Of a stretch of DNA of 64,000 bases, positions 2,359 to 27,694 are shown piece after piece. The notes beneath the pieces were generated by a model, which was not told the origin of the DNA, searched no databases, and saw only the letters and a list, made by a program, of their open reading frames with translations. This DNA is from an uncultured Patescibacteria group bacterium (GTDB lineage Bacteria > Patescibacteriota > Microgenomatia > UBA1400 > PJMF01). Position numbers and translations under genes: made by a program. The first letter of the stretch is position 1. The number at the start of each line of letters is the position of its first letter. The stretch is taken from NCBI GenBank assembly GCA_905478415.1, contig CAJQIG010000002.1:186699-250698 (forward strand). Reading direction: 5' to 3'.

Positions 2359-4143
2359 ATGTCAGACGCACATAACCACAATCACAACCACCTAGCAGAA
2401 CTCGAAGCTTTGGCTCAACTCCGTCACTCTGCCGCTCATTTACTTGCAGCCGCAGTACTCGAACTGTATCCTGATGCCAAACCAACTATTGGTCCAGCAA
2501 CTGATGATGGTTTTTATTACGATTTCGATTTTAGTGAGCCAATCTCAGAGAATGACTTACCTAAAATTGAGAAAAAAATGAAAGAGCTCGTCAAACATTG
2601 GCGAGAGTTTTCTCACCAAGTTGTAACTGCCGATGAAGCCCTAGAACTCTATAAAAAGAACGAATATAAGTCTGAACTTATTCGAGAATTTGCTGGAGAG
2701 AATAGAACACTCACACTCTACATGGCTGGCAATTTCACAGATCTTTGTCGAGGTGGGCACGTTGAGAGTCCTAAGAAAGAACTCAAATTTTTTAAGTTAC
2801 TCTCACTAGCTGGTGCCTATTGGCGTGGGAGCGAAGAGAACAAAATGTTGACTCGTATTTATGGAACTGCTTTCTTCAGCAAAGATGAACTCAAAGAAAA
2901 CCTGCAAATGCGAGAGGATGCAAAAGCTCGTGATCATCGAAAACTGGGTAAAGAACTAGGATTATTTGTCTTTTCGGATACTATTGGCAAAGGTCTGCCG
3001 CTTTGGACAGAAAAGGGGACAACAATCCGCCGAGAACTGGAACGCTTTATTACTGACGAAGAAATTCGTCGTGGTTATAAGCATGTGATGACTCCTGATA
3101 TTGCTAATCTTGATCTGTATCGAAAATCTGGTCACTATCCGTACTACAAGGATTCGATGTATGCGCCAATCAAAATTGAGGATGAAGAGTACATGCTTCG
3201 GCCAATGACCTGTCCACATCATTTTGAGTTATATTCTTCGGCTCCACATTCGTATCGAGAATTGCCAATGCGTATTGCCGAACTAGCTAAGTTGTACCGC
3301 TACGAGCGTTCTGGCGAACTATCTGGATTGATTCGTGTCAGAAGCTTCTGTTTAGCCGATTCTCACATCATCTGTAGCAAAGACCAAGCTAAGGCCGAAA
3401 TTAATGGTGTTCTGGACCTGATAGAGTATATTTCAAGTGTCTTTGGTCTCGAAAAAGGTAAAAACTATTCATATCGCTTGTCACTCGGTGATCGCTCAGA
3501 TGAAAAGAAGTACTTTAAGGATGACGCTTCGTGGGATTTTGCCGAAAAAGTGCTTCGTCAGGTTCTGATTGAGCGAGATGCTGTGTATGTTGAAGCCGAA
3601 GGAGAAGCTGCTTTCTACGGGCCAAAAATTGATGTGCAGATGCGTAATGTTAATGGAAAAGAAGACACAGCTTTTACGGTTCAGTACGACTTTGTTATGC
3701 CAAAGCGATTTGACCTTAAGTTTACAAATGAAGCTGGAGAGGAGGAGCAGCCAGTAGTGGTTCACAGATCTTCGATTGGTGCGATCGAGCGCAGTATTGC
3801 GTTTTTGATCGAACACTATGCCGGTAAGTTCCCGGTTTGGCTTTCGCCAACTCAGGTAAGCATCTTGCCAATTTCTGATAATTATTTGGAGTATGCCGAA
3901 GAAGTCAAAATTGCACTGGCTCGACACAATGTGCGCGTTCACCTTGATGACAGGTCGGAGCGACTCCAAGCCAAAATTCGCCATGCCCAGATGGAACAGA
4001 TTCCGTACATGCTGGTTGTCGGTGAAAAAGAAGTTGCCGATGGCACGGTGGCCGTGCGTCACCGAGACAAAAAAGAGCAGCAAGTGATGAAAATTGCCGA
4101 CTTTGTTTCCTTGGTAGTTTCTGAAATTGCTGAAAAGAAGTAA
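2359..4143 (+). CDS. thrS: threonine--tRNA ligase, short form lacking the N-terminal TGS/editing domains
   Basis: 594 aa; class II aaRS catalytic core and C-terminal anticodon-binding region; His/Asn-rich N-terminus (HNHNHNH). Confidence 0.9.
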   Translation: MSDAHNHNHNHLAELEALAQLRHSAAHLLAAAVLELYPDAKPTIGPATDDGFYYDFDFSEPISENDLPKIEKKMKELVKHWREFSHQVVTADEALELYKKNEYKSELIREFAGENRTLTLYMAGNFTDLCRGGHVESPKKELKFFKLLSLAGAYWRGSEENKMLTRIYGTAFFSKDELKENLQMREDAKARDHRKLGKELGLFVFSDTIGKGLPLWTEKGTTIRRELERFITDEEIRRGYKHVMTPDIANLDLYRKSGHYPYYKDSMYAPIKIEDEEYMLRPMTCPHHFELYSSAPHSYRELPMRIAELAKLYRYERSGELSGLIRVRSFCLADSHIICSKDQAKAEINGVLDLIEYISSVFGLEKGKNYSYRLSLGDRSDEKKYFKDDASWDFAEKVLRQVLIERDAVYVEAEGEAAFYGPKIDVQMRNVNGKEDTAFTVQYDFVMPKRFDLKFTNEAGEEEQPVVVHRSSIGAIERSIAFLIEHYAGKFPVWLSPTQVSILPISDNYLEYAEEVKIALARHNVRVHLDDRSERLQAKIRHAQMEQIPYMLVVGEKEVADGTVAVRHRDKKEQQVMKIADFVSLVVSEIAEKK

Positions 4144-4166
4144 CTTTTGTATAGAATTGAATAAAA

Positions 4167-4197
4167 AAGCCTCGACGCGCTGCGTCGGGGCTTTTTA
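4167..4197 (+). terminator. rho-independent terminator after thrS
   Basis: gcctcgacgcgctgcgtcggggc hairpin followed by ttttt. Confidence 0.6.
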
Positions 4198-4220
4198 CTG
4201 TGTACTACATAATTAAGACA

Positions 4221-4250
4221 AAAAAACGCCAAGGTAGATCCTTGGCGTTT
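4221..4250 (-). terminator. terminator for the minus-strand small membrane gene
   Basis: acgccaagg-tagat-ccttggcgt hairpin with A-run (T-run on the minus strand). Confidence 0.5.
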
Positions 4251-4260
4251 GACATACGTA

Positions 4261-4584
4261 TTATTGATAAAGTTGGCAGACGGCGACTTCGTCACCGATC
4301 TGCCAGGTGCAGACGCCAGTGACATCCTGGTCACTGGTCGAGACAACAAATTGTCTCAGGATAACTTCACCGTCACCGCTCGGTAGAACGGTTTTGTACA
4401 AAGTTACCGCGTTTTCAGAAACTGAAACTCCTGTTTCCTGCTCGAAGAATGTAGCAACTTGAGCCTTGTCAGGTTCGAGCTGACTGACTTGAGATAGAAT
4501 AACAACAGACCATATTCTGATTCCAATAAGAGCCAGTAGCAATACTACAATCAATCCAATCAAGAGGTCTCGTCGATTATACAT
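4261..4584 (-). CDS. small membrane protein (N-terminal TM helix)
   Basis: hydrophobic segment LLIGLIVVLLLALIGIRIW; 107 aa. Confidence 0.4.
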   Translation of the reverse strand: MYNRRDLLIGLIVVLLLALIGIRIWSVVILSQVSQLEPDKAQVATFFEQETGVSVSENAVTLYKTVLPSGDGEVILRQFVVSTSDQDVTGVCTWQIGDEVAVCQLYQ

Positions 4585-4747
4585 ATTTCTTCATCCCTTT
4601 ATCCAATTTTAAAAAAACTGGGTAAATAAATACGTTTATTAAAGAGTGGCTATTCCAACTTAAATTAAAATAATACAAGTTGAAACAACATCCTATATTA
4701 TATACAAAAATGACAAAAAGTCAAGTGAAATAAATAAAAATGACAGA

Positions 4748-4780
4748 GAAAAGCCCCAGCATGATTGCCGGGGCTTTTTA
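4748..4780. terminator. hairpin terminator (agcccc...ggggct) at the end of the 4789..5606 minus-strand operon
   Basis: GC stem with T-run on the plus side and a T-rich tract on the minus side. Confidence 0.45.
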
Positions 4781-4788
4781 ACAAGTAA

Positions 4789-5211
4789 CTAATCATCGGT
4801 GGTACACACCATTTTTTCGCGGCGCGTACCCCAAATGCATGTACCAATAATTTTATTTCGACCTTCTACATGCACTTCGAAGTCCTGGGAACAGCTGTTG
4901 CCGCCGGTGATTTGGTGGCATGCTTGTTCTAGAAGCACAACGTTCTCAGGCTCGATACCATAATTGGTATACCTTGTCTCGTTACCTAGATAGGTAGCAA
5001 TCCTGGCTTCATTTGGCATTTGGCCAAAGTAGTTACTGACTGCGTTTGTGACAAAGAGTGTTCCTAGTAGGGCGGCCAAAATAATCGAAAGAATAAAGAG
5101 TCCAACGGCTAGATCTTGAACAAACCACTGCCAAATTTTTTGAATTTTGACTTGGCCTTTTTCAAGAGTCTTTAAAACTTTCAGTTTTAACTCATATTTT
5201 TTTTGTTTCAT
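4789..5211 (-). CDS. hypothetical membrane protein
   Basis: one TM segment; overlaps the upstream gene by 4 nt (ATGA), implying translational coupling. Confidence 0.4.
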   Translation of the reverse strand: MKQKKYELKLKVLKTLEKGQVKIQKIWQWFVQDLAVGLFILSIILAALLGTLFVTNAVSNYFGQMPNEARIATYLGNETRYTNYGIEPENVVLLEQACHQITGGNSCSQDFEVHVEGRNKIIGTCIWGTRREKMVCTTDD

Positions 5212-5606
5212 GATTCCTCCAAAAAAGCTAGAACGCCAGGTTTCTGGCGTTGATTAAAATCGTCAATAAAGCACCTTGGAATCGCATAGCTTCCAGTAGT
5301 GCATACACCAGTTGAGTAAGTGTCATCGGTGAAGATGACGTCGAACTTGACTTGGCAGATTTTTTGAATAGTATTTTTTCCATCTAGTTTGCAGTGCCAG
5401 TCAGATTGAAAGGCAATATGTTTTACTAGAAGGGAAGGATTCTCTTCAATCTTTTCTAAATTCTCATTCAAAAGCAGTTCTGCTTGCTGTTCAGTCAGCG
5501 GATGGACTTCGACCAGGGTATACGATAGTAATCCTTGAAAAAGCATCCCAGTACAAAAGAGAATCAGAGCCCACATATGGGGCTCATATTTTTTGAAACG
5601 AGCCAC
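5208..5606 (-). CDS. hypothetical membrane protein
   Basis: N-terminal TM helix; first gene of a two-gene minus-strand operon. Confidence 0.4.
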   Translation of the reverse strand: MARFKKYEPHMWALILFCTGMLFQGLLSYTLVEVHPLTEQQAELLLNENLEKIEENPSLLVKHIAFQSDWHCKLDGKNTIQKICQVKFDVIFTDDTYSTGVCTTGSYAIPRCFIDDFNQRQKPGVLAFLEES

Positions 5607-5776
5607 GAGGGCCTCCTTTTGTTTTTTTATAGTTACTTGTTAAAGAAAAACATTACAATTGGGTTGTGAAACACAACTGTAATGTCCTATATTATATATT
5701 AGGAATCATTTTTATTCAAGCAATGGCTTGGAAAAAGACCTATGGTACAATTTGTTTCGTAATTATTTGGAGTTTC

Positions 5777-6640
5777 ATGCAAGAAAATAAAAAAATACTT
5801 TCTATTGGTTCACTGGTTATCGATAGAATTAACGGTAAGAAAAGACCTGGTGGAGAGGCTACTAATGTAGCGGTCAATACACAACGGTTAGGAGTAGATG
5901 CTTCGTTGTTAACAGTTGCTGCGCGCAGCCCAGAGTCGGTTGTGTTGCAGGAGGAAATTGAGGCTTTGGGTGTTTCATTTTTTGCATTATCACAGGTTTT
6001 AGAAAAACTTCCAGAATGTCACATCTATATGGGTGCAGATGGGAAAGAAGAAGGATATGATTGGATTGATAATGGTTTAGAAAGTGCTTATGCAACTTCT
6101 GAAGTTCCTGTTTCACTTGTTCAAGCATACCAAACAGTTTATTTAGCAGCTTGTGAACCAGGATTCGCGTACCGTGTTTCTCAACAGGTGCAATCTCATC
6201 AAACTGTCGTTTTTAATCCTGGCACAAGAATATATGAAGATCCAGGCATGTTTATGCAGACACATAGGCAAAGCTCTATCACATTTATGAATCAATCGGA
6301 GTTCGATCATTTGCAGGTTAAAAAATATGTTAGGACAGAAGAGGATCTTTTATATTCTTCAGAACAGATGGTTATTATTACGGCTGGAAAAAATGGAGCT
6401 CGGTTAGTAACTAAAGAGGGCATAAAAAACTATCCAGCTCAGTTGGTGCCAGCTATTGATGAAACGGGAGCGGGTGACTCCTTTGCTTCTGCAGTGATTT
6501 GGGCTTTAGGTAGAGGTTTAGAAATGGATGCGGCAATGGTCTCAGCAAGCATACTAGCATCACTCGTTGTTCAAAGGGTTGGAGCGCAAATAGATGCAGA
6601 AACGGCTGCTCACTTTATACAGCAAATTGTGAATCAGTAG
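5777..6640 (+). CDS. PfkB-family carbohydrate/ribo-kinase (start placed at an internal ATG)
   Basis: C-terminal DETGAGDSFASAVIWAL matches the PfkB signature 2 (DTxGAGD). Confidence 0.6.
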   Translation: MQENKKILSIGSLVIDRINGKKRPGGEATNVAVNTQRLGVDASLLTVAARSPESVVLQEEIEALGVSFFALSQVLEKLPECHIYMGADGKEEGYDWIDNGLESAYATSEVPVSLVQAYQTVYLAACEPGFAYRVSQQVQSHQTVVFNPGTRIYEDPGMFMQTHRQSSITFMNQSEFDHLQVKKYVRTEEDLLYSSEQMVIITAGKNGARLVTKEGIKNYPAQLVPAIDETGAGDSFASAVIWALGRGLEMDAAMVSASILASLVVQRVGAQIDAETAAHFIQQIVNQ

Positions 6641-6655
6641 TTACTGGATCAAATT

Positions 6656-7423
6656 TTATGTTACGTGTAAGGGGTGTTCAATTGGTGTGTTAGCCAATAT
6701 TTCAATTACTTGTTGGTAAGTGTGATCAATGTTTCCGAACTTTGGTGTAATTATTTGAATGATTCCATTTTTTTCAAGCAAAGCACAATGAGCTTGATCA
6801 GCTTTTCCTTCAGCAACGCGGATGACTTGTTTTTCTGGAGAGTCTGTGGCTCGTTTTTGTAATGTTTTCTGAGTAAAATTTTCATCGGTGGGTACAACTC
6901 CAACCTTAATGGCTTGGGGAAGAAGGTATTCAACTTCACCTTCTATGCGGTTGGGAGGGGACTCCATAATGAGTTTTTTATTCGCTGCTAATAGTGAATA
7001 AATAATATCGATATCATATGCATAGGCATTACCATAGGCAGTCACAATTAAAAACAATTTTCCTGTTCCTTCCAGAATGTAGAGTTCATCATGAGATATT
7101 CCATATGAGCCTTTCTCGATTTCACCAGGTCTTATGGGTTGTCGAGTGGTGACGTATGGTGCTTCTTGGAAGCCAACTGTGTGTTCTAAAAAGGAGATCA
7201 AGGTGCCTTTTCCAGCTCCAGATGGGCCGGTAATGAGAATAACTTGATTACTTCTTTTTTGTATAAATGATATTTTTTCTTTGAGTTCAGTGGTTATTTT
7301 CTCAAGAGTTAGCATTTCAACTTGGTTGAGTAGCTGAGTGATAAAGTCAGGTCCAAGTGCTAAGAGTCTTTGATCAGTGAGGATATCTGCAGATTGTAGA
7401 GTAATAGGTTTTATTTCTTTCAT
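6656..7423 (-). CDS. gmk: guanylate kinase with an N-terminal extension
   Basis: ITGPSGAGKGTL P-loop; YVTTRQPIRPGE resembles the Gmk TTRxPRPGE motif. Confidence 0.65.
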   Translation of the reverse strand: MKEIKPITLQSADILTDQRLLALGPDFITQLLNQVEMLTLEKITTELKEKISFIQKRSNQVILITGPSGAGKGTLISFLEHTVGFQEAPYVTTRQPIRPGEIEKGSYGISHDELYILEGTGKLFLIVTAYGNAYAYDIDIIYSLLAANKKLIMESPPNRIEGEVEYLLPQAIKVGVVPTDENFTQKTLQKRATDSPEKQVIRVAEGKADQAHCALLEKNGIIQIITPKFGNIDHTYQQVIEILANTPIEHPLHVT

Positions 7424-7463
7424 AGTTGAGGATTATACCAGATAATTTTAAAATCCTATAGTT

Positions 7464-7492
7464 TTGACAAAAGGATCGACAAACTGTATAAT
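7464..7492 (+). promoter_or_regulatory. sigma70-type promoter (TTGACA-17-TATAAT)
   Basis: exact consensus hexamers upstream of the 7585 gene. Confidence 0.55.
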
Positions 7493-7584
7493 TTACGCAT
7501 CAGGTATGTACAATATCTGATTTTTCTTTAACATTCAAAAAAATTGTACGTAAATAGTTTTTTTACCTTCATAAGGAGATAACC

Positions 7585-8988
7585 ATGAGTCAAATGTACG
7601 ATGTAATTATTGTAGGAGCAGGCCCCGGCGGAATGTTCGCAGCAATGGAGTTAATTGGAAAAGGACTCAAGGTCCTTATGTTGGAGCATGGCCGACCGTA
7701 TGCAAAACGGTTGGAATGTCCAATTATGGATTTGGGGCATGAACGATGCCCTGGGTCTGGTTGTGGCGGCAGTTGTAATGTGATAAGCGGGTTTGGTGGT
7801 GCGTTCACTCAACGAAGTGGGGGTACTCTAAGTATGTATCCTGCAGGATCACATCTGTTGAACTATTTTCCTTCAGAGAAAATTTTGATTGCTCGGTACA
7901 ATGAAGTACTGGGTGTTTGGAAAAATTTTGCTGATGGAAGAATGAAATTAGAAGGGGATATCCCCAAAGAGAAGATTTATCGTTTTGGACATGATGTTTC
8001 TCTACAAGGTGGGGTATATAAGCACTGGCAAGGATATAAAATGTCCCGAGAAGTGTTGAATCAAACCACCCAGAAGATGGAAGAACACATTAAGAATGGT
8101 ATCGAAGTAGCCCACAGGAAATCAGTTACTAAAGTTGAAAAACAAGGCAAAATCTGGCATCTCTACTGTGCAGATGGCACAGAGTATATGTCAAAATCTG
8201 TCTTGTTTTCTACTGGTCGAAAAGGCAACTCAGTTGTCTCTCAGATATTAACTGAAGCTGGTATTCAATATGCTCGCTCATCAATCGATATCGGCATTCG
8301 CCTTGAAATCGATGAAGGAATTATTGATCACTTGGCTGAAATTCATCCAGATGTCAAAATTAAATTTGATGTTCATGGCCATGAAGTCAGAACGTTTTGT
8401 TTCTGTCCTGGTGGTCGGATGGCGGTCTTTTCTCAAGACCCAGTTGACGAGATCAGTTGGCAACGCATGCTGTTTTTAGAAGGCTATATTGGCCTTGCCG
8501 AGAGTAGTGGTCGAACTAACATGAGTTTCTTGCATCGGCTGAGTTTTGAAAATTCCGAACAAGTTTGGGATTTTCAGCGCAAGTTTGAGGGTAACTACCA
8601 GAAAATGGGAGGTGTCCCAATTGCGCAGCGGTACACCGATTTGGGTAAACCAGTGTTTCGGGCTCTGCCAGATGGACACACTCTCTCTGTATATCGGATT
8701 GGTGGAGTCATGAACGTGATTCCCAATGATTCTGGTGAAAAAATTCTTGAAGCAATGCGTCGGTTTAACCGACTCATGGGTGGTAAAGTCCTCACGGATC
8801 GCGCTGTCCTCATTGCTCCCGAATTGGGAAACTTTTGGCCAGAGGTAGTCGTGAACAATGATTTTCAGACTTCGCGCGCCGGCATGTTTATGGCTGGCGA
8901 TGGCTTAGGATTTACTCGTGGCGCTTTGCAAGCATCCCTGACGGGAACTGCAGCAGCTCGTGGTATTCAAAACTATCTGTCAGCATAG
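7585..8988 (+). CDS. FAD-dependent oxidoreductase (COG2509-like)
   Basis: N-terminal DVIIVGAGPGGMFAA dinucleotide-binding motif; 467 aa. Confidence 0.6.
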   Translation: MSQMYDVIIVGAGPGGMFAAMELIGKGLKVLMLEHGRPYAKRLECPIMDLGHERCPGSGCGGSCNVISGFGGAFTQRSGGTLSMYPAGSHLLNYFPSEKILIARYNEVLGVWKNFADGRMKLEGDIPKEKIYRFGHDVSLQGGVYKHWQGYKMSREVLNQTTQKMEEHIKNGIEVAHRKSVTKVEKQGKIWHLYCADGTEYMSKSVLFSTGRKGNSVVSQILTEAGIQYARSSIDIGIRLEIDEGIIDHLAEIHPDVKIKFDVHGHEVRTFCFCPGGRMAVFSQDPVDEISWQRMLFLEGYIGLAESSGRTNMSFLHRLSFENSEQVWDFQRKFEGNYQKMGGVPIAQRYTDLGKPVFRALPDGHTLSVYRIGGVMNVIPNDSGEKILEAMRRFNRLMGGKVLTDRAVLIAPELGNFWPEVVVNNDFQTSRAGMFMAGDGLGFTRGALQASLTGTAAARGIQNYLSA

Positions 8989-10844: not shown

Positions 10845-11561
10845 TTACACCTCAAAATCAACTTTAATCCCAGGACTCATGGTCGCAGAAAGAGTAGATT
10901 TAAGGACTTTTCCTTTAAGAGCAGTCATCAAAGCGTTGTAGTTTTCAACGAGTTCTTTTGTATCCATTGAAACTTTTCCAATGGTTACATGAATAACTGG
11001 TCGTTTCTTTTCTGTCTTAATGATCAGCTCACCTTTTTCAAGATCAGCCTTCTTCTGTTCTGGATTTGCAGTCACAGTACCGTTCTTTGGGTTTGGCATT
11101 AAGCCTCTTGGGCCCAAAACACGAGCGTGTTTGGCTATTTTAGGCATAAACTGTGGAGTCGTGATCAATGCATCAAAATCGATGTTGCCGGCTTCAATTT
11201 CAGCTAGGACAGCGTCATCAACGATAACTACTTTGAGTGATTTTCCAGTAGAGTGGGGAAGCGTAAGCTTGTTTTGGACTCCAGTTTCTCTGACAACTCC
11301 ATCAACAGTAATACTACCGTCGAATTTTGAGTATGAAAGTTTCTTGGTAAGTTCAATCGCAGAGAAAGCGTCGTAGATCTTGGTTTTATCGACCTGTGAA
11401 CGAGTTGCTACATACTTCTTGCTGCGAATTCGAGCAGCTTTTTTTTCTGCTTTTGGAGCAGCTGTTTCAGCATCGCTTTCTACAGCAGGTGCTTGTGTGT
11501 TTTCGACAATTTTGACCTCATCAGTGGTCGCGGACATGTCAACGTTTTTTTTCGATCCCAT
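10845..11561 (-). CDS. rplA: 50S ribosomal protein L1 with a ~45-aa N-terminal extension
   Basis: KKY...VD.TK.Y start of the L1 fold, GPRGLMPNPK motif, 238 aa. Confidence 0.9.
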   Translation of the reverse strand: MGSKKNVDMSATTDEVKIVENTQAPAVESDAETAAPKAEKKAARIRSKKYVATRSQVDKTKIYDAFSAIELTKKLSYSKFDGSITVDGVVRETGVQNKLTLPHSTGKSLKVVIVDDAVLAEIEAGNIDFDALITTPQFMPKIAKHARVLGPRGLMPNPKNGTVTANPEQKKADLEKGELIIKTEKKRPVIHVTIGKVSMDTKELVENYNALMTALKGKVLKSTLSATMSPGIKVDFEV

Positions 11562-11618
11562 GGTATCTCCTTAATTCCGTCAAAGCGGGGTATAAGTAAT
11601 TAATACTTTTCGTGCATT

Positions 11619-11666
11619 GCACCTCTTTTATTCATCTGCTATCGCCAGGCTGAACAAAAGAGGTGC
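11619..11666. other. 11-bp-stem hairpin in the rplK-rplA intergenic region (possible L1 autoregulatory/attenuator structure)
   Basis: gcacctctttt ... aaaagaggtgc perfect inverted repeat. Confidence 0.3.
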
Positions 11667-11690
11667 AAGGTACTCTTTTTCTTCTTACAA

Positions 11691-12116
11691 TTACTCAGCA
11701 ATGGCAACACCCATACTTCGGGCTGCACCCTTGACTGAGTTCATAGCTGCTTCAACATCATTGGTGTTGAGGTCAGGTAGTTTTTCAGTAGCGATAGCTC
11801 GAACTTGATCCATTGTTAGGGTTCCCACTGAGTTGCGACCTGGAGTTTGACTTCCAGATTTGAGTTTGAGCACTTGCTTGATCATAGCTGATACTGGAGG
11901 TAGTTTGAGTTCGTATGTGAATGAACGGTCTGCATAGACAGTGATTTCAGCAGGAATAGTTTGACCTTTTTTGTCTTGAGTAGCAGCATTATACTGCTTC
12001 AAGAAGTCCATCATGTTGATTCCAGCTTGACCAAGAATAGGTCCCACTGGAGGAGCTGGAGTTGCGGTACCAGCTGGAAGATTAAGTTTGAGTTTGTTAA
12101 TTATTTTTTTTGCCAT
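11691..12116 (-). CDS. rplK: 50S ribosomal protein L11
   Basis: PAGTATPAPPVGPILGQAGIN motif; 141 aa. Confidence 0.9.
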   Translation of the reverse strand: MAKKIINKLKLNLPAGTATPAPPVGPILGQAGINMMDFLKQYNAATQDKKGQTIPAEITVYADRSFTYELKLPPVSAMIKQVLKLKSGSQTPGRNSVGTLTMDQVRAIATEKLPDLNTNDVEAAMNSVKGAARSMGVAIAE

Positions 12117-12136
12117 ACGTTGCTTTTATATTATTC

Positions 12137-12748
12137 TTATACTTTCTTTACTTGGAGGAAATCGAGGGTAACTGGAGTCTCACGACCGAAAATGTTAACC
12201 AGGACTTCGACTTGACCTTTTTCTTCATTAATTGCATTGACTGTTCCGAGGAAGTCGTTGAACGGACCATCGACAATGCGGACCGCTTCGCCTTCGACAT
12301 AATCTGCCTTGTATGAAGGAGCAGCTTGAGTCATGTACTTCATGATGGCTTTGACTTCATGCTTAGGAAGAGCAGTTGGTTTGTTACCAACTCCAACGAA
12401 ACCAGTGACTCCTTGAGTGGTGCGAACAGCTAACCAAGAATCATCTGTGAGTTCCATGTTAACTAACATGTACCCAGGGAAGATTTTTTCGCTGACAGTT
12501 TTTCGAGTTCCGCGTTTGATCTGAATTTTTTCTTGGGTTGGAATCAAAATTCCGAGAATTTTACCAGTTAAGTTCAAAGTTTCGACACGTTGCTTGAGGG
12601 CTTCAGCTACTTTGTTCTCGTGACCAGAGTAGGCGTGAACGACATACCAACGAGCCTTGCGGTTTTCGGCTTCCGAAACAACAATTAAGTTTGGGGTTTG
12701 CACCTTAACTTCTTGAACTTCTGGTGGTGTCATTGTTTGATCTGTCAT
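12137..12748 (-). CDS. nusG: transcription termination/antitermination factor NusG (N-terminal extension)
   Basis: WYVVHAYSGHENKV NGN domain; C-terminal KOW (GEAVRIVDGPFNDFLGTV). Confidence 0.85.
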   Translation of the reverse strand: MTDQTMTPPEVQEVKVQTPNLIVVSEAENRKARWYVVHAYSGHENKVAEALKQRVETLNLTGKILGILIPTQEKIQIKRGTRKTVSEKIFPGYMLVNMELTDDSWLAVRTTQGVTGFVGVGNKPTALPKHEVKAIMKYMTQAAPSYKADYVEGEAVRIVDGPFNDFLGTVNAINEEKGQVEVLVNIFGRETPVTLDFLQVKKV

Positions 12749-12782
12749 ATATTTTCTTTTTAGCTACAACTCCGGGCAGCAG

Positions 12783-12980
12783 TTATACCAATACAGCGAG
12801 TAATTTTGAGAAGATAAAATCTAATACTCCAATGTACAAACCAATTAAAATACTGACGCTGAGAACCAAGATTGTCTTTTCTTGTGTCTGTTCTCTTGAA
12901 GGCCAAGAAACCTTTTTGATTTCGCGGGTTACTTCCTTAAAGTACGTTGCAGGTTTGAACATAGGCAAGTATTGTAACAA
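12783..12980 (-). CDS. secE: preprotein translocase subunit SecE
   Basis: 65 aa; KEVTREIKKVSWPSREQ followed by one TM helix; conserved position upstream of nusG. Confidence 0.75.
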   Translation of the reverse strand: MLQYLPMFKPATYFKEVTREIKKVSWPSREQTQEKTILVLSVSILIGLYIGVLDFIFSKLLAVLV

Positions 12981-13022: not shown

Positions 13023-14753
13023 TTATGATTTATTTGTTGGGACTGTGGGACCACTTGGTGGAGTAATACCCTTACTTTTTACTCGTTCCATCATGCTGGA
13101 GGCAGGTTTTGACTCAGTCGCACTTGCTTGAGCAGGAGCTTGTGTAGCAGCAACCTGTTTTTCCAATGTTGCTTGGGTTGGCATACTTGCGGTTGGTGTT
13201 GTCATGCTGCGAGCAGTGGTTAATGGAGTCTCGATGTTTTGTCGTTTCTCAATATCTTGGGGTGCTGCTGGCTTTGTTGCAGGCGTAACTGGTGTTCCAG
13301 AGCTTTTTTTATTGCCGAGGGCTTTCTTTATAAGTAGCACAATCAGCGCTAGTATAAAGAGTCCGATGCCAGCTCCAATAACAATCAGTGGCAAGGCCGA
13401 ATCTGGTGTGCTCATCATCTGACGAAGGAGGTCGAGAGCACTTTCATTCTCAGCCAATGGAATATTTTCAAGAGTATCTGCTTTTTCCATACCAGGAATG
13501 ACGTTCTCTTGCTCAGGCGTGGTCTCTGTAGTTTCTGTTGTGGCTTCTTCTGTTGCATCGGTGGTTGTTTCTGCAATTTCAGCAGGTTTTCCAGTGTTCT
13601 CTGATTGTGAGTCTGCGCCCTTAGGAGCACTGTAGGTAGTAGAAATAATTGCAACTGTTGAAGGAGTGCAGCTGGTACTACTGACGTTTGTTGCCAGGCG
13701 GCAAGCTCCTTGATAACAGCGAAGATTGATGTCACAGTCGTCATTTGTCGAACAAGCAGTGTTACAGCTTAACGCTAAGTTTTCTTCTTCTTCTGTAGTG
13801 AGCGCAGTACAAGCTGTGTCCTCTGTATTTTGTGGATCTCGGCATTTATTATTCCAGCAGAAGAGGCCATCTTGGCATTCATTAGTGGTGGCACAGCCTT
13901 GGTTACAAGAGTACTCTGGGCCAGATACTGTGGTACTACATTGGTTGTTTGTTGGATTAATGGCTAAGCGACAGACACTTTTTTCACCTAAATCGTAGCA
14001 GCGTTGGTTAATACCGCACTCATCATTACTTGAACAATTGTCATTACAACTGACAACTTCGATGCCCCCAACTGCAGGTGATGGAGAAGGTGACGGAGAG
14101 ACATCTGGTGATGCTGATGGAGAAGGAGAGGGGCTCACTTCTGGATCATCGCTTGGTTCTTCGTTAACAGTTAGGGTGAGTGAAGGCACGTGCTTGAGTT
14201 TGTCCTCGAGAGGATTGCTTCCGTGGAGAATAGAGATTGATTCTTCACGATCAAAGTTAAAAGTAATGGTCCCTGCTTGCGTAGGAATGAAGCTGACTCT
14301 TAGAAAGGCCGCTGGTTCAGCGGTGGTAAATGGTTGTCCAATTTGGGCAGGAAGAGCGAGCGCTTGCACTAGGAAGCCATCTTGCGTACGTTCAACTTGT
14401 GTACCTGCTGCTTGTAGACCAGTGCCAGTAATGACATCGGCAGTGAGCGTATCAAAACTGTCTGAGATAACGTTAAAGAGAACTTGGATTCCATCCGTGG
14501 GGACTGAGTGGGTAGTGACTTTGAAGACAACCTCAGTTTCTTGACCAACAGTAATCTTGGTTCCAGGGGTAACCGTGTTTGAAATTTCGACAACGCCGTT
14601 ATCGATTGATGCTTGTCTTCGAATATCTTGAGGGTTTTGCAGAGGGGCTTGCACAAGGAGCAGGCCGACAACACTAAAAGCTACCGTCAAAACAGCCAGC
14701 AGGACGCCAGTTGTTGATGGTTTTTGAAGAAATGATTTTGTTGTCTTTTTCAT
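13023..14753 (-). CDS. cell-surface protein: signal peptide, cohesin-like beta domain, Pro/Ser linker, 3x six-cysteine modules, acidic T/E-rich region, C-terminal TM anchor and S/T/P-rich tail
   Basis: N-terminal hydrophobic leader. TKITVGQETEVVFKV...GIQVLFNVISDSFD resembles cohesin. PSPSPSASPDVSPSPSPSP linker. Three repeats with spacing Cx3Cx5Cx5Cx4-8Cx10C. C-terminal LPLIVIGAGIGLFILALIVLLI. Confidence 0.5.
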   Translation of the reverse strand: MKKTTKSFLQKPSTTGVLLAVLTVAFSVVGLLLVQAPLQNPQDIRRQASIDNGVVEISNTVTPGTKITVGQETEVVFKVTTHSVPTDGIQVLFNVISDSFDTLTADVITGTGLQAAGTQVERTQDGFLVQALALPAQIGQPFTTAEPAAFLRVSFIPTQAGTITFNFDREESISILHGSNPLEDKLKHVPSLTLTVNEEPSDDPEVSPSPSPSASPDVSPSPSPSPAVGGIEVVSCNDNCSSNDECGINQRCYDLGEKSVCRLAINPTNNQCSTTVSGPEYSCNQGCATTNECQDGLFCWNNKCRDPQNTEDTACTALTTEEEENLALSCNTACSTNDDCDINLRCYQGACRLATNVSSTSCTPSTVAIISTTYSAPKGADSQSENTGKPAEIAETTTDATEEATTETTETTPEQENVIPGMEKADTLENIPLAENESALDLLRQMMSTPDSALPLIVIGAGIGLFILALIVLLIKKALGNKKSSGTPVTPATKPAAPQDIEKRQNIETPLTTARSMTTPTASMPTQATLEKQVAATQAPAQASATESKPASSMMERVKSKGITPPSGPTVPTNKS

Positions 14754-14768
14754 AGGTGCCGATACTCC

Positions 14769-15743
14769 TTATTGAGTTACTGTGAATTTTCCTGCCATGA
14801 TTGAGTAATCTTTAATGTCTACACTCGAGTCGCAGTTTATATCTGCGGTAAGCATACTATTCCGAGTTAAGAATTCTCGACTTAAAATAGCAAAGTCTCT
14901 CAGGTCCACTTTTCCATCCGTATTGAGGTCTGGATTGTTAGCACATTTTTTAGCATCAAAGGTGTGTTGGTGTTTATTGTTGTCGTAGTTTGTTTCTTGG
15001 ATGATGGTTTCTCCATGGGTATCAACAGTATCAATACTGAAGAGAAAACGGTTTCTTTCCTGAGCTACGAAAGATCCGGAAAGTTTAGTCATGTAGCCAT
15101 CTTGGTGAGCAGTGAGCATGTTGTAGAAGACAAGATCTCCCGTTTTGTTTCGATTTGATGTGAGTGATACAAAAAAACTTGGAAGTTGTTCAGTGGGACC
15201 TTTCACCAGGTTTTGTAGAGCTACATCGACGCTGAAATAGTAGGTTTTACCAGTCATGAGTTCAGATTCTGGGACTTCGTCAGTGAGAGCTTCATCAAAA
15301 AAGAAGGTTGGGGTATCGAGTTGAGTAGTATCAGTGAAGAAAATATCTTCAATTGGCTGGGTGCAAACAATAATGGGATCACAAGGAGCGGCAAAACACT
15401 CAACCTGTTGGTATCGACATCCAGGAGGAAGTTCGCAGATTCTACGGCTTGCACAACTGCCTTCAGTCAAAGCACCTTCTGTCTCAAGACACACATCTAG
15501 GTTTTGGCACGGTTCTATAACTTCATCTCTAGAAACGGCAACAGTTGCAGTACTAGCATCGGAGCGTACATCGACGGACTTATTTGATTGAAGATCCTGA
15601 AGTACAAAAAATGATCCGATAATACCAGCTACAACTAAGAAGATACTAAATCCAAACAACGCGCCACTGAGTCCATTAGAAAGTCGAGTCAGAGGAGAGT
15701 TCGATAAAGATGTAGTTTTGTGCATAAAAGGCAAACTAGGCAT
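14769..15743 (-). CDS. membrane-anchored cysteine-rich surface protein with a C-terminal type-I dockerin domain
   Basis: N-terminal TM; 9-Cys cluster; tandem dockerin repeats DLNTDGKVDLRDFAIL and DINCDSSVDIKDYSIM. Confidence 0.55.
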   Translation of the reverse strand: MPSLPFMHKTTSLSNSPLTRLSNGLSGALFGFSIFLVVAGIIGSFFVLQDLQSNKSVDVRSDASTATVAVSRDEVIEPCQNLDVCLETEGALTEGSCASRRICELPPGCRYQQVECFAAPCDPIIVCTQPIEDIFFTDTTQLDTPTFFFDEALTDEVPESELMTGKTYYFSVDVALQNLVKGPTEQLPSFFVSLTSNRNKTGDLVFYNMLTAHQDGYMTKLSGSFVAQERNRFLFSIDTVDTHGETIIQETNYDNNKHQHTFDAKKCANNPDLNTDGKVDLRDFAILSREFLTRNSMLTADINCDSSVDIKDYSIMAGKFTVTQ

Positions 15744-15929: not shown

Positions 15930-16814
15930 ATGACCGAACATCCAGTTAGAAAAGCCATTATCACTGATGCTGGTTTTGCCAGCCGATATCTTCCCATTAC
16001 TAAATCAGTGCCAAAAGGTATGTTACCACTTGGGAACAAACCAATTATGCAGTTTATGGTTGAGGAATGCGCTGAAGCGGGGATCGAAGAGATTATCATT
16101 GTGGCTACCCCAGAAGGAAAGCCAGTCTACGAAGATTACTTCAACAACAGTGTCAACAGAATTCGTAAGCAGCTAGCTGCTCAAGGCAAAGAAGATCGAT
16201 ACGAACCGGTGCAACATGTGCTTAATTTTCCAAAAATTGTAGTGATTACTCAAGACGAGAGTTTGCCATATGGGAATGGTTCTCCAGTAGCTTCTGCTCA
16301 AAAATTTGTCGAAGGAGAAGAAGCCTTTTTAGTTATGTACAGTGATGATGTCCTGTTTGGCGATCAAGGTGATGCTAAGACAATGGTTGATTTGTACGAA
16401 GCCAATCCAGACGTAGCCGGCATTATTATGTCTCAGGCAGTCAGCCCTAAAGTGGTTGATAAATATGGAATTATCACCTTTAAAGATGGATCTGATACAG
16501 ATCTCGACTTTATTGTTGAGAAACCTGATAAAGGAACAGAACCATCTCTCTTAGCTTCGTATGGACGATATTTGTTAACTCCAGCAGTGTTGCAATATCT
16601 TGTTCCAACAAATACTGGTAAGGATAATGAACTCTGGACTGTAGATGCAATTACCCAGGTTTCAAAAACAAAACGAATTTTAGTTGGTAAGACAAAAGGT
16701 GAGTGGATGACCACCGGTGATCCTGAAAATTACTTCAAGGCCCACCTTAAGTTTGTGCTTAATAACGAGAAGTATGGTTCAAAGGTGTCAGAGTGGGTCA
16801 AAGAGTTGGCCTAG
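15930..16814 (+). CDS. galU: UTP--glucose-1-phosphate uridylyltransferase
   Basis: KAIITDAGFASRYLPITKSVPKGMLPLGNKPIMQF nucleotidyltransferase motif. Confidence 0.8.
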   Translation: MTEHPVRKAIITDAGFASRYLPITKSVPKGMLPLGNKPIMQFMVEECAEAGIEEIIIVATPEGKPVYEDYFNNSVNRIRKQLAAQGKEDRYEPVQHVLNFPKIVVITQDESLPYGNGSPVASAQKFVEGEEAFLVMYSDDVLFGDQGDAKTMVDLYEANPDVAGIIMSQAVSPKVVDKYGIITFKDGSDTDLDFIVEKPDKGTEPSLLASYGRYLLTPAVLQYLVPTNTGKDNELWTVDAITQVSKTKRILVGKTKGEWMTTGDPENYFKAHLKFVLNNEKYGSKVSEWVKELA

Positions 16815-17742: not shown

Positions 17743-17814
17743 GCCGAAGTGGCTCAGTGGTAGAGCACCATCTTGGTAAGATGGGGGTCACGGGTTCGAT
17801 TCCCGTCTTCGGCT
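17743..17814 (+). tRNA. tRNA-Thr (anticodon GGT)
   Basis: cloverleaf folded by hand: acceptor gccgaag/cttcggc, anticodon loop TTGGTAA, T-loop TTCGATT; no CCA encoded. Confidence 0.85.
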
Positions 17815-17941
17815 CAGAGTGGGTAGTTAACTTGAAAAGTTGCCGATTTGCTCAAGATCAAACTATGTCGAGGTGATATAATTTGTGAAGGTTTCTGGAT
17901 GAATAGTGCAGAGATTTTGTTTTTTAATGTCTTTGAAAGAT

Positions 17942-18023
17942 GCCAGGTTACTCAAGCGGTCAACGAGGACAGACTGTAAATCTGTTGGCTCAGCCTTCGT
18001 AGGTTCGAATCCTACACCTGGCA
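17942..18023 (+). tRNA. tRNA-Tyr (anticodon GTA), class II long variable arm
   Basis: acceptor gccaggt/acctggc, anticodon stem acaga/tctgt with loop CTGTAAA, variable arm ggctcagccttcgt, T-loop TTCGAAT. Confidence 0.85.
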
Positions 18024-18041
18024 CAACTATAATAGTAAGGT

Positions 18042-18115
18042 GCCACCTTAGCTCAGTTGGTTAGAGCGACGGTTTTGTAAACCGTAGGTCCAGGGTTCGA
18101 ATCCCTGAGGTGGCT
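18042..18115 (+). tRNA. tRNA-Thr (anticodon TGT)
   Basis: acceptor gccacct/aggtggc, anticodon loop TTTGTAA, T-loop TTCGAAT. Confidence 0.85.
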
Positions 18116-18192
18116 CAAGCATTTTGACTGGCGTATTTACGCATGGTCATTCGTTTGATATAATACCCGTCTGAAAAGAAAAGAAAGTTAGT

Positions 18193-18393
18193 ATGGCAAG
18201 CAAGAAAAAAGGTCCACGACAACACGTCGGCTTGAAGTGTAAAGAATGTAACGCTTTTGGGTACGTGACCGCATTTAATAAAAATAATGAACAACTTAAG
18301 AAACAAGCAGGAGGTTCTACTTTCCCGCTGAACAAGTACTGCAAAAAGTGTCGCAAGCACACGGAGCATGTACAGTCTAAGAAACTTAAGTAA
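18193..18393 (+). CDS. rpmG: 50S ribosomal protein L33
   Basis: 66 aa; CKECNAFGYVT...CKKCRKHTEH zinc-ribbon pattern. Confidence 0.85.
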   Translation: MASKKKGPRQHVGLKCKECNAFGYVTAFNKNNEQLKKQAGGSTFPLNKYCKKCRKHTEHVQSKKLK

Positions 18394-19124: not shown

Positions 19125-19740
19125 AGCGAGGAAACTCCGGACAGTTCATCCATTGGAGCGAAGCGATAGTGTCCGGGGATGAACGCCTCATAGCACCGAA
19201 GGTGCTATGATGTCATCATGAAAACCCGGAAGTTAAATCATAGTGTGTATAAACACCAATATCACTTGGTATGGGGGACGAAATATCGTCGGAAATTTTT
19301 CAAGAAGTATGTTGGAGATGAATTTGAACATCTTCTATACGAATTAGTTAAAAAGAAGTATCCAGATTTATATATCGAAGCGGTTAATACAGACCAGGAT
19401 CATGTACATATACAGATAGAAATACCACCAACATATGCAGTGTCAGACGTAGTAAAGCGAATAAAATGGCATAGTAGTGTGTACCTCAAGAAGAAGTTCA
19501 AATTTATCGATAGAATGTATATAAATGGAAACATTTGGGGTGTGGGATATTACTCATCAACCATAGGATTGGACGAAGAAACAATTAGAAAATACATAGA
19601 ATATCAGGGGAAAGAAGAAGTCCTCCAGACACCGAGTCTATTTGAATAAAATTTTCATGAGAACTTGACCTTTAGGTCATTGCGAAGCAAATAGGAAACC
19701 CCGGACATTGGCGTAGCTGTCCGGGGAGGACGTCATTTTA
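19125..19740 (+). mobile_element. IS200/IS605-family insertion sequence (tnpA only) with subterminal hairpins
   Basis: left-end hairpin tccggaca...tgtccgggga (19136-19179) and right-end hairpin ccccggaca...tgtccgggg (19699-19727) in the same orientation flank a Y1 HUH transposase gene. Confidence 0.6.
19218..19649 (+). CDS. tnpA: IS200/IS605-family Y1 (HUH) transposase TnpA
   Basis: YHLVWGTKYRRK, HUH motif DHVHIQIEI, catalytic-Tyr region WGVGYYSSTIG; 143 aa. Confidence 0.8.
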   Translation: MKTRKLNHSVYKHQYHLVWGTKYRRKFFKKYVGDEFEHLLYELVKKKYPDLYIEAVNTDQDHVHIQIEIPPTYAVSDVVKRIKWHSSVYLKKKFKFIDRMYINGNIWGVGYYSSTIGLDEETIRKYIEYQGKEEVLQTPSLFE

Positions 19741-21218: not shown

Positions 21219-21650
21219 ATGCTTGAACCAAACTCGTTTTTAAATGAAGGTCACCATGATCATGTGAAGGGGGTACTTGCAAAGTACGAGGACAAACTTT
21301 CAGTGGATGCACTTCGTGATGCTGAAGTACAGAAAAAACTAACCTACGCACTTGAACAGCAACTTCATCAATGGGAAACAATTACTAGCGGAGTCCAGAC
21401 TGCGTTAGATGCCGGGTTGTTTGCGCAAGGAGTTCCGAGAGAGTTTGTTGAATCGTTTTCTCAACAGTTAGAAACAAATAGTGCAAACTTAGACATACTT
21501 TTCAAAGCTGCTGAAGAGGTTAGCACGTTAGTACCCGATGAGAGCGAACTGGTAGATACTCTATCAGAGTACCAAGCCCGAATTAGGATTAGAATAGAAG
21601 AATGTCACTTAGCATTAAAAGAATTAAAAAAAGTCAAAGTAACAGACTAA
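21219..21650 (+). CDS. hypothetical protein
   Basis: 143-aa ORF, helical and acidic, no recognisable motif. Confidence 0.35.
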   Translation: MLEPNSFLNEGHHDHVKGVLAKYEDKLSVDALRDAEVQKKLTYALEQQLHQWETITSGVQTALDAGLFAQGVPREFVESFSQQLETNSANLDILFKAAEEVSTLVPDESELVDTLSEYQARIRIRIEECHLALKELKKVKVTD

Positions 21651-22150
21651 AGTGCTTGGAATATTCCCTCAAGGATGTGTTTAGCAGGCGCAGGATCACC
21701 ATCATCTGGTTCCAGAGTTAGGACGTATTTGCTGTGATCTGTGAGATCTTTGCTATCTATAAATGTATTAGTATAGGTGCCATCTTCACTTTTTTCAGCA
21801 ACCCCTGTGCTAATTATACTTAAAGGAGCAGGGCGTACAATCCAGCCTTCGTAGAAATCTGTACCTTCTGGGTCTGGCAAGTTTTCGAGTGGGGCAATCA
21901 TGCGGTACTCATTTTCAATAAATCCTGCCATAACCGTGCCAGAACCACCACTATTAGCTACGTCCTCAAGGAGTGCTTCGAACTGGTACTGTGTGAGTTG
22001 AGTATCGACTATTTGGTCTGGATTTTCAGTTGCATTTAGAGCTTCAGGAACTTCCGGAGGAAGTGATGGGGTTGCAGGAGTATTTTTTGTGCATCCAGCT
22101 ATCAGTATGCTTGTGGCTCCTAAAAGGAGTAAAAAGAGAGTTTTTTTCAT
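21647..22150 (-). CDS. lipoprotein (start at internal Met)
   Basis: MKKTLFLLLLGATSILIAGC signal peptide with lipobox. Confidence 0.5.
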   Translation of the reverse strand: MKKTLFLLLLGATSILIAGCTKNTPATPSLPPEVPEALNATENPDQIVDTQLTQYQFEALLEDVANSGGSGTVMAGFIENEYRMIAPLENLPDPEGTDFYEGWIVRPAPLSIISTGVAEKSEDGTYTNTFIDSKDLTDHSKYVLTLEPDDGDPAPAKHILEGIFQAL

Positions 22151-22316
22151 GTAGTAAAAGTATAGCAGGTTACTGTAGATAATAAAAAAAGGCGGCGAGT
22201 TCGGTGACTCGCCGCTAGTAGTAACAGAGAATCTAGTCGTTTGGAGAAACAAGAAAGAACGGTCCAAGGATACTTACAGCACTCAGCACTCTCAATAAAT
22301 GATAGTATATTCTGAA

Positions 22317-27573: not shown

Positions 27574-27623
27574 GGGGATAAGTTAACAAAAAAAGAACTA
27601 TAAATAGCTCTAATTCAAAACTG

Positions 27624-27694
27624 CAGGGCCAGAGGGAATCGAACCCCCGTCAAAGGTTTTGGAGACCTCTATTCTACCGCTGAACTATGGCCCT
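27624..27694 (-). tRNA. tRNA-Trp (anticodon CCA)
   Basis: acceptor agggcca/tggccct, anticodon loop CTCCAAA, T-arm ggggg-ttcgatt-ccctc. Confidence 0.85.

Follow-up and report, generated by a model that had tools for sequence, protein, structure and literature searches.

A putative non-cellulosomal cohesin-dockerin pair encoded beside secE-nusG in an uncultured Patescibacteria bacterium

The Patescibacteria (also called the candidate phyla radiation, or CPR) comprise abundant bacteria whose genomes are very small and most of which are uncultured. Attachment to other cells is believed to be their way of life, and little is known of how their surfaces are organized. Here we describe two adjoining genes in a 64,000-nucleotide (nt) stretch of DNA from an uncultured Patescibacteria group bacterium (assembly GCA_905478415.1, contig CAJQIG010000002.1, positions 186,699 to 250,698), hereafter called the window. 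Gene A (13023..14753) encodes a membrane-anchored protein of 576 amino acids with a single domain of predicted cohesin fold and belongs to a conserved Patescibacteria family. Gene B (14769..15743), which lies directly upstream, encodes a protein of 324 amino acids that comprises an N-terminal transmembrane (TM) segment, a short motif, an eight-cysteine region, a beta-rich region, and a C-terminal dockerin. Both genes and all of their features lie on the reverse strand. The two open reading frames (ORFs) exist as reported in a first-pass annotation made from the sequence alone, which read the products as a cohesin-like and a dockerin-bearing surface protein. Orthologs of B begin at Met7 (nt 15725).

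The cohesin-fold domain and the dockerin

The beta-sandwich domain of A spans residues ~50-200 (14154..14606). Its AlphaFold2 (AF2) model, built on an alignment of 40 sequences, is all-beta and has high confidence, with a predicted local distance difference test (pLDDT) value of 92 and a predicted template modeling score (pTM) of 0.84. When this model was compared with the PDB by Foldseek, cohesins made up nearly all of the best 50 matches, with E-values down to 1e-6 and target-normalized template modeling scores of 0.6-0.72. The modeled domain is a nine-stranded flattened jelly-roll that can be superimposed on solved cohesin structures.

Sequence models give a different outcome. The Pfam Cohesin model (PF00963) has no match at E <= 10 in A or in 68 diverse members of its family, and a profile of the A family searched against all PDB sequences found no cohesin. 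Likewise, hhalign comparisons of the A family with the CipA cohesin, and with a narrow alignment of CipA-type cohesins, returned probabilities below 0.1%. The CipA query is 97% identical to 1aoh, and the cohesin profile is narrow in that a homolog search seeded with 1aoh gave only 11 close relatives. Because the fold matches and the sequence models do not, we term the domain a new-family cohesin fold rather than a Pfam Cohesin. The annotation of this region as cohesin-like is therefore upheld for the fold and not for the sequence. As modeled, the domain would be a cohesin by structure, representing a sequence-divergent family outside Pfam Cohesin.

The C-terminus of B (residues 267-320; 14784..14945), judged by its sequence, is a genuine type I-like dockerin. 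Pfam Dockerin_1 (PF00404) matches residues 272-317 with a score of 30.8 bits (gathering cut-off 22.9; E 3.5e-7), and the last 63 residues match solved type I dockerins by sequence, including 4fl4_A (E 1.3e-4), 2vn5_B (6e-4), and 1daq (8e-4), as well as 2mte and 3ul4_B. The two repeats that had been recognized at first pass, DLNTDGKVDLRD and DINCDSSVDIKD, are both present. Conservation of the calcium-binding positions had been set beforehand as a test, and in an alignment of eight orthologs the Asp and Asn ligands of loop 1 (residues 272-283; 14895-14930) and loop 2 (residues 301-312; 14808-14843) are indeed conserved. Specifically, D272, N274, D276, D280, and D283, together with D301, N303, D305, and D312, are invariant, and D309 is invariant or nearly so. 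The same tandem 12-residue F-hand pattern, with Asp or Asn at positions 1, 3, 5, 9, and 12, also occurs in 22 dockerins from related loci. Helices following the calcium loops of B are predicted by AF2 at low confidence only.

Position 11 of the calcium loop is a cohesin-contact position in type I dockerins. Among the 22 dockerins from related loci this position is variable, and the two repeats agree at it in 11 of them, compared with 2.7 expected. Such symmetry is typical of type I dockerins with a dual binding mode. The dockerin of B also carries two invariant cysteines. Cys267 (14943-14945) stands five residues before calcium loop 1, and Cys304 (14832-14834) occupies position 4 of loop 2 within the sequence DINCD. 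This cysteine pair recurs in many dockerins of related loci, and a disulfide clasp between the two residues that stabilizes the dockerin is possible.

Ahead of the dockerin, B contains a cysteine cluster that had been described as having nine cysteines. We count eight (residues 79, 85, 97, 103, 109, 116, 121, and 127; region 79-127, 15363..15509), all of which are invariant in the orthologs and are additional to the two within the dockerin. The middle region that follows (residues 130-262; 14958..15356) is rich in beta structure and probably adopts an Ig-like sandwich fold. AF2 modeling of B was carried out on a shallow alignment of eight sequences, which yielded a pLDDT of 53.9, a pTM of 0.38, and pLDDT values below 50 over residues 268-324. 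Foldseek searches with this low-confidence model returned only generic beta-sandwich matches with E-values of at least 1.2e-3. Pfam models identify no catalytic, carbohydrate-active enzyme (CAZyme), or carbohydrate-binding domain in B, and NCBIfam models match nothing in it. Only eight orthologs of B are present in a database of 5.8 billion proteins, and PF00404 is found in 8/8.

Conservation of the gene pair

Genes B and A are in the same frame and are separated by a gap of only 15 nt. At their junction (14754..14771), the TAA stop codon of B overlaps a Shine-Dalgarno sequence, AAGGAG (14765-14770), that precedes the A start codon ATG by 11 nt. The short gap and this overlap suggest coupled expression, such that co-transcription and translational coupling of the two genes are likely.

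The arrangement was compared across species by using one genome per species, giving 34 loci whose six-frame ORFs were searched with hidden Markov models (HMMs) built here; 28 of these loci have enough upstream sequence to be informative. In 19/28 species, a same-strand gene encoding a C-terminal dockerin ends no more than 400 nt upstream of the A homolog, which bears out the earlier suggestion that the side-by-side arrangement is meaningful. On the downstream side, secE is present in 26/28 and nusG in 27/28, and an NTP_transferase gene lies upstream in 24/28 loci. Five homolog neighborhoods share a common block of NTP_transferase (-), one or more dockerin proteins, A, secE, nusG, L11, and L1.

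The upstream dockerin carriers range from 131 to 620 amino acids in length, and the C-terminal dockerin is their sole common feature. Some are only 131-134 amino acids long and consist of a TM segment, the N-terminal motif described below, and a dockerin alone; others are B-like proteins of 320 amino acids or larger proteins of 470-620 amino acids. One carrier includes a Pel9A-like beta-helix, and two also have their own cohesin-fold domain in an arrangement like that of adaptor scaffoldins. Because the carriers are otherwise heterogeneous, the dockerin is the conserved element of the upstream gene, and the adjacency of B and A is not incidental.

Proteins that combine a cohesin-fold domain with a C-terminal dockerin were observed upstream of the A homolog in loci L005 and L029, and L029 has a further cohesin-fold protein that lacks a dockerin (L005, 3583-4998; L029, 4100-5128 and 2486-4096). 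Multi-tier assemblies are possible in some species. A different placement occurs in locus L035, where a 737-residue dockerin protein with the N-terminal motif (4587-6797) is encoded between nusG and rplK and not upstream of the A homolog.

A mirror-tree comparison of 20-21 pairs of upstream dockerins and A homologs indicates that the two domains diverge together. The correlation between dockerin and cohesin-domain distances is 0.74, compared with 0.60 for the dockerin and the cysteine modules of the same A protein and 0.60 for the dockerin and NusG. Moreover, the partial correlation of dockerin with cohesin domain, given the cysteine modules, is 0.56 (permutation p ~2e-4), whereas that of dockerin with cysteine modules, given the cohesin domain, is -0.05. 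The co-divergence and position-11 statistics are both affected by phylogenetic non-independence, and we regard them as supportive, not decisive.

Envelope features and genomic surroundings

A search for relatives of A yielded 68 homologs at 90% clustering, all of which have the architecture of A, and the N-terminal domain alone is represented by 576 clusters in a library at 50% identity. The source names of the homologs are Pacebacteria, Microgenomates, and Patescibacteria, and 12 contigs of independent metagenomes carry identical proteins. Several TPA records titled "uncultured Pseudomonadales" share the gene content of the other loci. Many metagenome-assembled genome records with the typical Patescibacteria locus are labeled "uncultured Pseudomonadales" (L006-L009, L012, L014, L019-L021, L024, L025, L034, L035, and L039) or "Vitreimonas sp." (L031), and these are probably mislabeled or mis-binned. 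No Pfam or NCBIfam family matches A, except for a sub-threshold match to Dumpy_DPY in one cysteine module. The name "DedD" given to one homolog by the Joint Genome Institute is probably a low-complexity artifact.

Alignment of the family reveals a constant order of elements: a hydrophobic segment at the N-terminus, the motif Q-D-x-R-x-Q-A-S, a beta domain of ~155 residues, a Pro/Ser linker, three six-cysteine modules, an acidic stretch, a TM segment, and a tail. In A, the hydrophobic segment at residues ~16-35 (14649..14708), located by a Kyte-Doolittle scan, has a net positive N-flank and is conserved in the family. The first-pass annotation called it a signal peptide; a hydrophobic segment is present, and it could serve either as a cleaved signal peptide or as a signal-anchor. 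In B, the N-terminal membrane anchor that had been proposed corresponds to one hydrophobic segment at residues ~27-48 (15600..15665).

A and B also share a juxtamembrane motif. It reads QDIRRQAS in A (residues 42-49; 14607..14630), where the Ala of the family consensus is invariant, and VDVRSDAS in B (15552..15575), whose orthologs have SQDVRSxAS. Most dockerin carriers and most A homologs elsewhere have, as do A and B, an N-terminal TM segment followed 8-12 residues on by Q-D/E-x-R-x-x-A-S/T. Across the window and 39 loci (~0.6 Mb), 40 distinct occurrences of the motif were found, of which 36 lie in cohesin-fold, cysteine-module, or dockerin proteins; within the window, only A and B have it. 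No Pfam or NCBIfam model covers the motif, and it may serve as a dedicated signal for sorting or processing. Two familiar kinds of processing site were considered and rejected. The residue at -3 is usually charged or large (Arg, Gln, or Lys) and the motif lies 8-12 residues past the hydrophobic core, which does not fit a signal peptidase I site, and there is no G/FxxxE motif as in type IV pilin-like signals.

Locus L037 contains adjoining genes (3907-5256, 5247-6683, and 6780-8285) whose products have cysteine modules and no cohesin-fold domain, two of them with the sequence QDVRQRAT. These genes are not beside secE-nusG and so indicate paralogous use of the motif and modules.

The remaining parts of A that were named at first pass (a PSPSPS linker, three six-cysteine modules, a Thr/Glu-rich stretch, a C-terminal TM segment, and a tail) are all present. 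The linker (residues 205-229; 14067..14141) is 32% Ser and 29% Pro (61% Ser plus Pro), contains PSPSPS, and differs in length across the family. The three modules (residues 236-272, 283-315, and 330-362; 13668..14048) have the spacing C-x3-C-x5-C-x5-C-x4/8-C-x10-C and the consensus CNxxCxSNxxCxxNLRCYxGxCRLATNxxSxxC. A regular expression finds three modules in 55/62 A homologs, and all 18 of the 18 cysteines are invariant in the family alignment.

The module could not be assigned to a named family at first pass, and we agree: its sole similarity is a weak one to Dumpy DPY (PF21164), at 16.5 bits against a gathering cut-off of 27. A profile of the module matches 1oig, a DPY structure, with E 2.4e-4 over only 22 residues, a weak resemblance. 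The DPY module shares the spacing C-x5-C-x5-C-x4-C-R-x-P and likewise forms tandem extracellular stalk or fiber modules. However, the modules of A have six cysteines per 33-37 residues, the DPY unit is shorter, and the modules of A occur in a bacterial context. Convergence may account for the resemblance.

The low-complexity stalk of A (residues 365-445; 13419..13661) is acidic and rich in Thr, Glu, and Ala, as seen from its composition and alignment, and an ETALD-like element is conserved in it ahead of the TM segment. The C-terminal TM helix (residues ~453-475; 13329..13397) has a hydropathy peak of 3.14, is followed by KK, and has flank charges of -2 outside and +4 inside. Hydropathy and flank charges together predict a topology in which the region between the two hydrophobic segments is extracellular, and the positive-inside flanks likewise place the dockerin of B outside. 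The tail that would lie in the cytoplasm (residues 476-576; 13026..13328) is rich in Thr, Ala, Pro, Lys, and Ser. Most of it is of low complexity and variable length, with the exception of a motif near its end, SSMMERVKSKGITPP (residues 552-566; 13056-13100), whose form in the family is SSMMERxKxKGITPP. Within this motif, M554 is invariant and K561 and P566 are conserved in at least 90% of the aligned sequences, which suggests a cytoplasmic binding partner.

A ribosomal-protein operon had been noted beside the pair, and the genes directly downstream of A on the same strand (10845..12980) are, in order, secE (12783-12980), nusG (12137-12748), rplK (11691-12116), and rplA (10845-11561). A promoter-like site is present just ahead of secE (12998-12971), and no terminator-like site was found between A and secE. 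Divergent from B is a gene for a sugar-1-phosphate nucleotidyltransferase-like NTP_transferase (15930..16814, forward strand; PF00483, 1.3e-27). Beyond it, a tRNA-Thr/Tyr/Thr cluster followed by rpmG (L33) spans 17743-18393 on the strand opposite to that of secE-nusG, such that NTP_transferase, B, and A lie between this cluster and secE.

Several other features of the window were recorded. An IS200-like Y1 transposase gene (19218-19649, forward strand; PF01797, E 9e-31) lies ~3.5 kb from the pair, and an ORF at 21647-22267 (reverse strand) has an anti-sigma-K RskA C-terminal domain (PF10099, 8.6e-11). The segment 24001-28000 has a GC content of 0.32-0.35 compared with ~0.42, shows reversed GC skew, and contains tRNA-Trp (27623-27694, reverse strand), a methyltransferase gene, and unassigned ORFs. 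It may be an acquired island.

Interpretation and relation to known systems

We propose, with a probability of roughly 0.6, that A and B form a non-cellulosomal surface cohesin-dockerin pair in which A acts as a membrane-anchored mini-scaffoldin that holds dockerin-tagged proteins; binding of B by A is what we infer from the observations above. A would be exported by means of its N-terminal hydrophobic segment, with the C-terminal TM helix holding it in the membrane. From the membrane outward, its ectodomain would consist of the acidic Thr/Glu stalk, the three six-cysteine modules stabilized by disulfides, the Pro/Ser linker, and the single cohesin-fold domain at the tip. B, co-expressed from the upstream gene and exported in the same manner as A, would plug into this cohesin in a Ca2+-dependent way through the two calcium-binding repeats of its dockerin, and its N-terminal modules would thereby be put on display outside the cell. 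The cargo differs from one species to another, in accord with a surface function that evolves fast, and attachment to, or interaction with, hosts or substrates is the likely role.

Two versions of this scheme can be envisioned. The N-terminal segments might be removed at the shared motif, in which case B would be secreted and then tethered by A. Alternatively, the segments might be retained, and the two proteins would form a complex while both are embedded in a single membrane. Cleavage is favored by the dockerin carriers of more distant species, which have ordinary AxA signal peptides, whereas the 131-residue carriers devoid of cargo favor retention or else a regulatory "cap" role.

Precedents for such a pair exist. 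Cohesin- and dockerin-domain proteins have been seen by metaproteomics in a related Microgenomates order, Candidatus Shapirobacterales (10.1101/2021.08.21.457207), and non-cellulosomal cohesin-dockerin pairs are described as established in other bacteria and archaea in PMC9012536, which cites Peer et al. 2009.

Several observations weigh against the proposal. B may itself be membrane-bound, a possibility raised by the fact that the motif after its hydrophobic segment is unlike a signal peptidase I site, and tethering by A would then be redundant. The 131-residue carriers have no cargo to display, and 9/28 species have an A homolog and no adjoining dockerin gene. Confidence in the AF2 model of B is low, for the dockerin as well. 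Finally, shared ancestry inflates the mirror-tree correlations, as does the similar degree of saturation in the two fast-evolving domains.

Some of these facts would also fit a reading in which A and B function independently and do not bind each other. The beta domain of A would then be a generic Ig-like or jelly-roll adhesin or stalk, the dockerin of B would bind another cohesin, a glycan, or the cell wall, and adjacency would reflect co-regulation or inherited gene order. The lack of sequence similarity between this domain and any cohesin agrees with such independence, as do the species with A alone and the conservation of the whole block from NTP_transferase through secE-nusG-rplK-rplA, which indicates that gene order here is generally stable. 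Partnerless dockerin-like modules are, in addition, common outside cellulosomes (PMC9012536). Nevertheless, the dockerin is the only constant of otherwise unrelated upstream proteins, and it diverges in step with the cohesin domain, not with the remainder of A. Neither the 64-kb window nor ~0.5 Mb of related loci contains another cohesin or dockerin ORF outside these positions, except for the one L035 gene and, downstream in L028, two weak and partial matches to the dockerin HMM. We consider independence unlikely, though by no means far-fetched.

The first-pass annotation favored a small cellulosome-like or adhesion complex. A surface or adhesion complex with a putative binding of A to B remains plausible, but the view that A is a scaffoldin organizing dockerin-bearing polysaccharide-degrading enzymes on the surface seems very improbable. 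It draws on the co-occurrence of a cohesin fold with a dockerin, on the Pel9A-like (pectate-lyase-like) dockerin protein upstream of the A homolog in one related genome, on a CBM_2 domain in one distant member of the A family, and on the interpretation of Microgenomates cohesin and dockerin proteins as a cellulosome from their domain annotations (10.1101/2021.08.21.457207). However, A has a single cohesin and no carbohydrate-binding module (CBM), and Pfam detects neither a catalytic nor a carbohydrate-binding domain in B. Within the window there is no other dockerin or cohesin ORF and no glycoside hydrolase, polysaccharide lyase, or CBM gene. Most carriers have non-enzymatic cargo or none, and the position and conservation of the genes resemble those of a core envelope component. 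That the ORFs are spurious, or that low-complexity sequence merely mimics domains, has a negligible chance of being correct. Large parts of A (the Pro/Ser linker, the Thr/Glu stalk, and the tail) are of low complexity, yet hundreds of homologs conserve the architecture, the A domain is predicted with high confidence, B has a significant Pfam match, and identical proteins recur in independent metagenomes.

The surface-pair reading can be extended to a more speculative proposal, which we doubt will hold as a whole. The pair would be the core of an envelope apparatus found throughout this Patescibacteria lineage (Microgenomates/Pacebacteria). Such an apparatus would use the undescribed N-terminal signal Q-D-x-R-x-x-A-S, divided between A and S, with a dedicated protease or pathway. 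The bond formed at the surface would be coupled through the TM helix of A to a cytoplasmic reader of SSMMERxKxKGITPP, and the cohesin-fold domain would be a deep, sequence-unrecognizable branch of the cohesin superfamily. Attachment to hosts, or sensing, would be examples of what the apparatus does in these episymbionts.

These findings give a conserved membrane family of ~576 clusters, annotated as "hypothetical" and located at a fixed site by secE-nusG, a function based on structure. They also point to probable ligands for the family, namely dockerin-tagged proteins with species-variable cargo, and so offer a testable handle on surface display and host attachment. Cohesin modules can go unrecognized by every current sequence model, so censuses of cohesin-dockerin systems that rely on Pfam or dbCAN give too low a count. 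The N-terminal motif common to A and B could represent a new sorting signal. In our literature search, neither the operon nor the A family nor the N-terminal motif was found described; a mention at the level of domains, in Shapirobacterales, was all that emerged. What was already known is cohesin-dockerin pairing itself and the annotation of cohesins and dockerins in Microgenomates. Within the literature searched, the features that appear to be new are a sequence-unrecognizable cohesin family, a TM anchor with a conserved tail, six-cysteine stalk modules, an adjacent dockerin gene beside secE-nusG, and a shared TM segment with the QDxRxxA motif.

Among known systems, A resembles the single-cohesin anchoring proteins OlpA, OlpC, and SdbA of Acetivibrio thermocellus and ScaE of Ruminococcus flavefaciens, which have type I dockerin partners. 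Unlike these proteins, which use surface-layer homology domains or a sortase signal, A is anchored by a TM helix near its C-terminus that leads into a conserved cytoplasmic tail. It also differs in having no Pfam Cohesin similarity, no primary scaffoldin or enzymes, a six-cysteine stalk, and a reduced-genome Patescibacterium as its host.

Non-cellulosomal pairs offer a second comparison, drawn from the glycosidase/toxin complexes of Clostridium perfringens (for example, the NanJ cohesin, 2vo8, and NagJ, 2o4e/2w1n) and from the Archaeoglobus fulgidus cohesin 2xdh. Cohesin sequence models recognize those cohesins but not the A family. Furthermore, A and B differ from those pairs in that their genes lie side by side, are probably co-translated, and keep a fixed site upstream of secE-nusG throughout the lineage, and in that the two proteins share an N-terminal TM segment and the QDxRxxA motif. 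Closest in lineage are the proteins of Candidatus Shapirobacterales, which belong to the same broad group, carry cohesin and dockerin annotations, and are expressed there; that report is confined to domain annotations and a cellulosome interpretation, and does not address architecture, gene pairing, synteny, or membrane anchoring (10.1101/2021.08.21.457207). The architecture of A and B argues instead that the pair acts outside a cellulosome, in line with what is known from other bacteria and archaea (PMC9012536).

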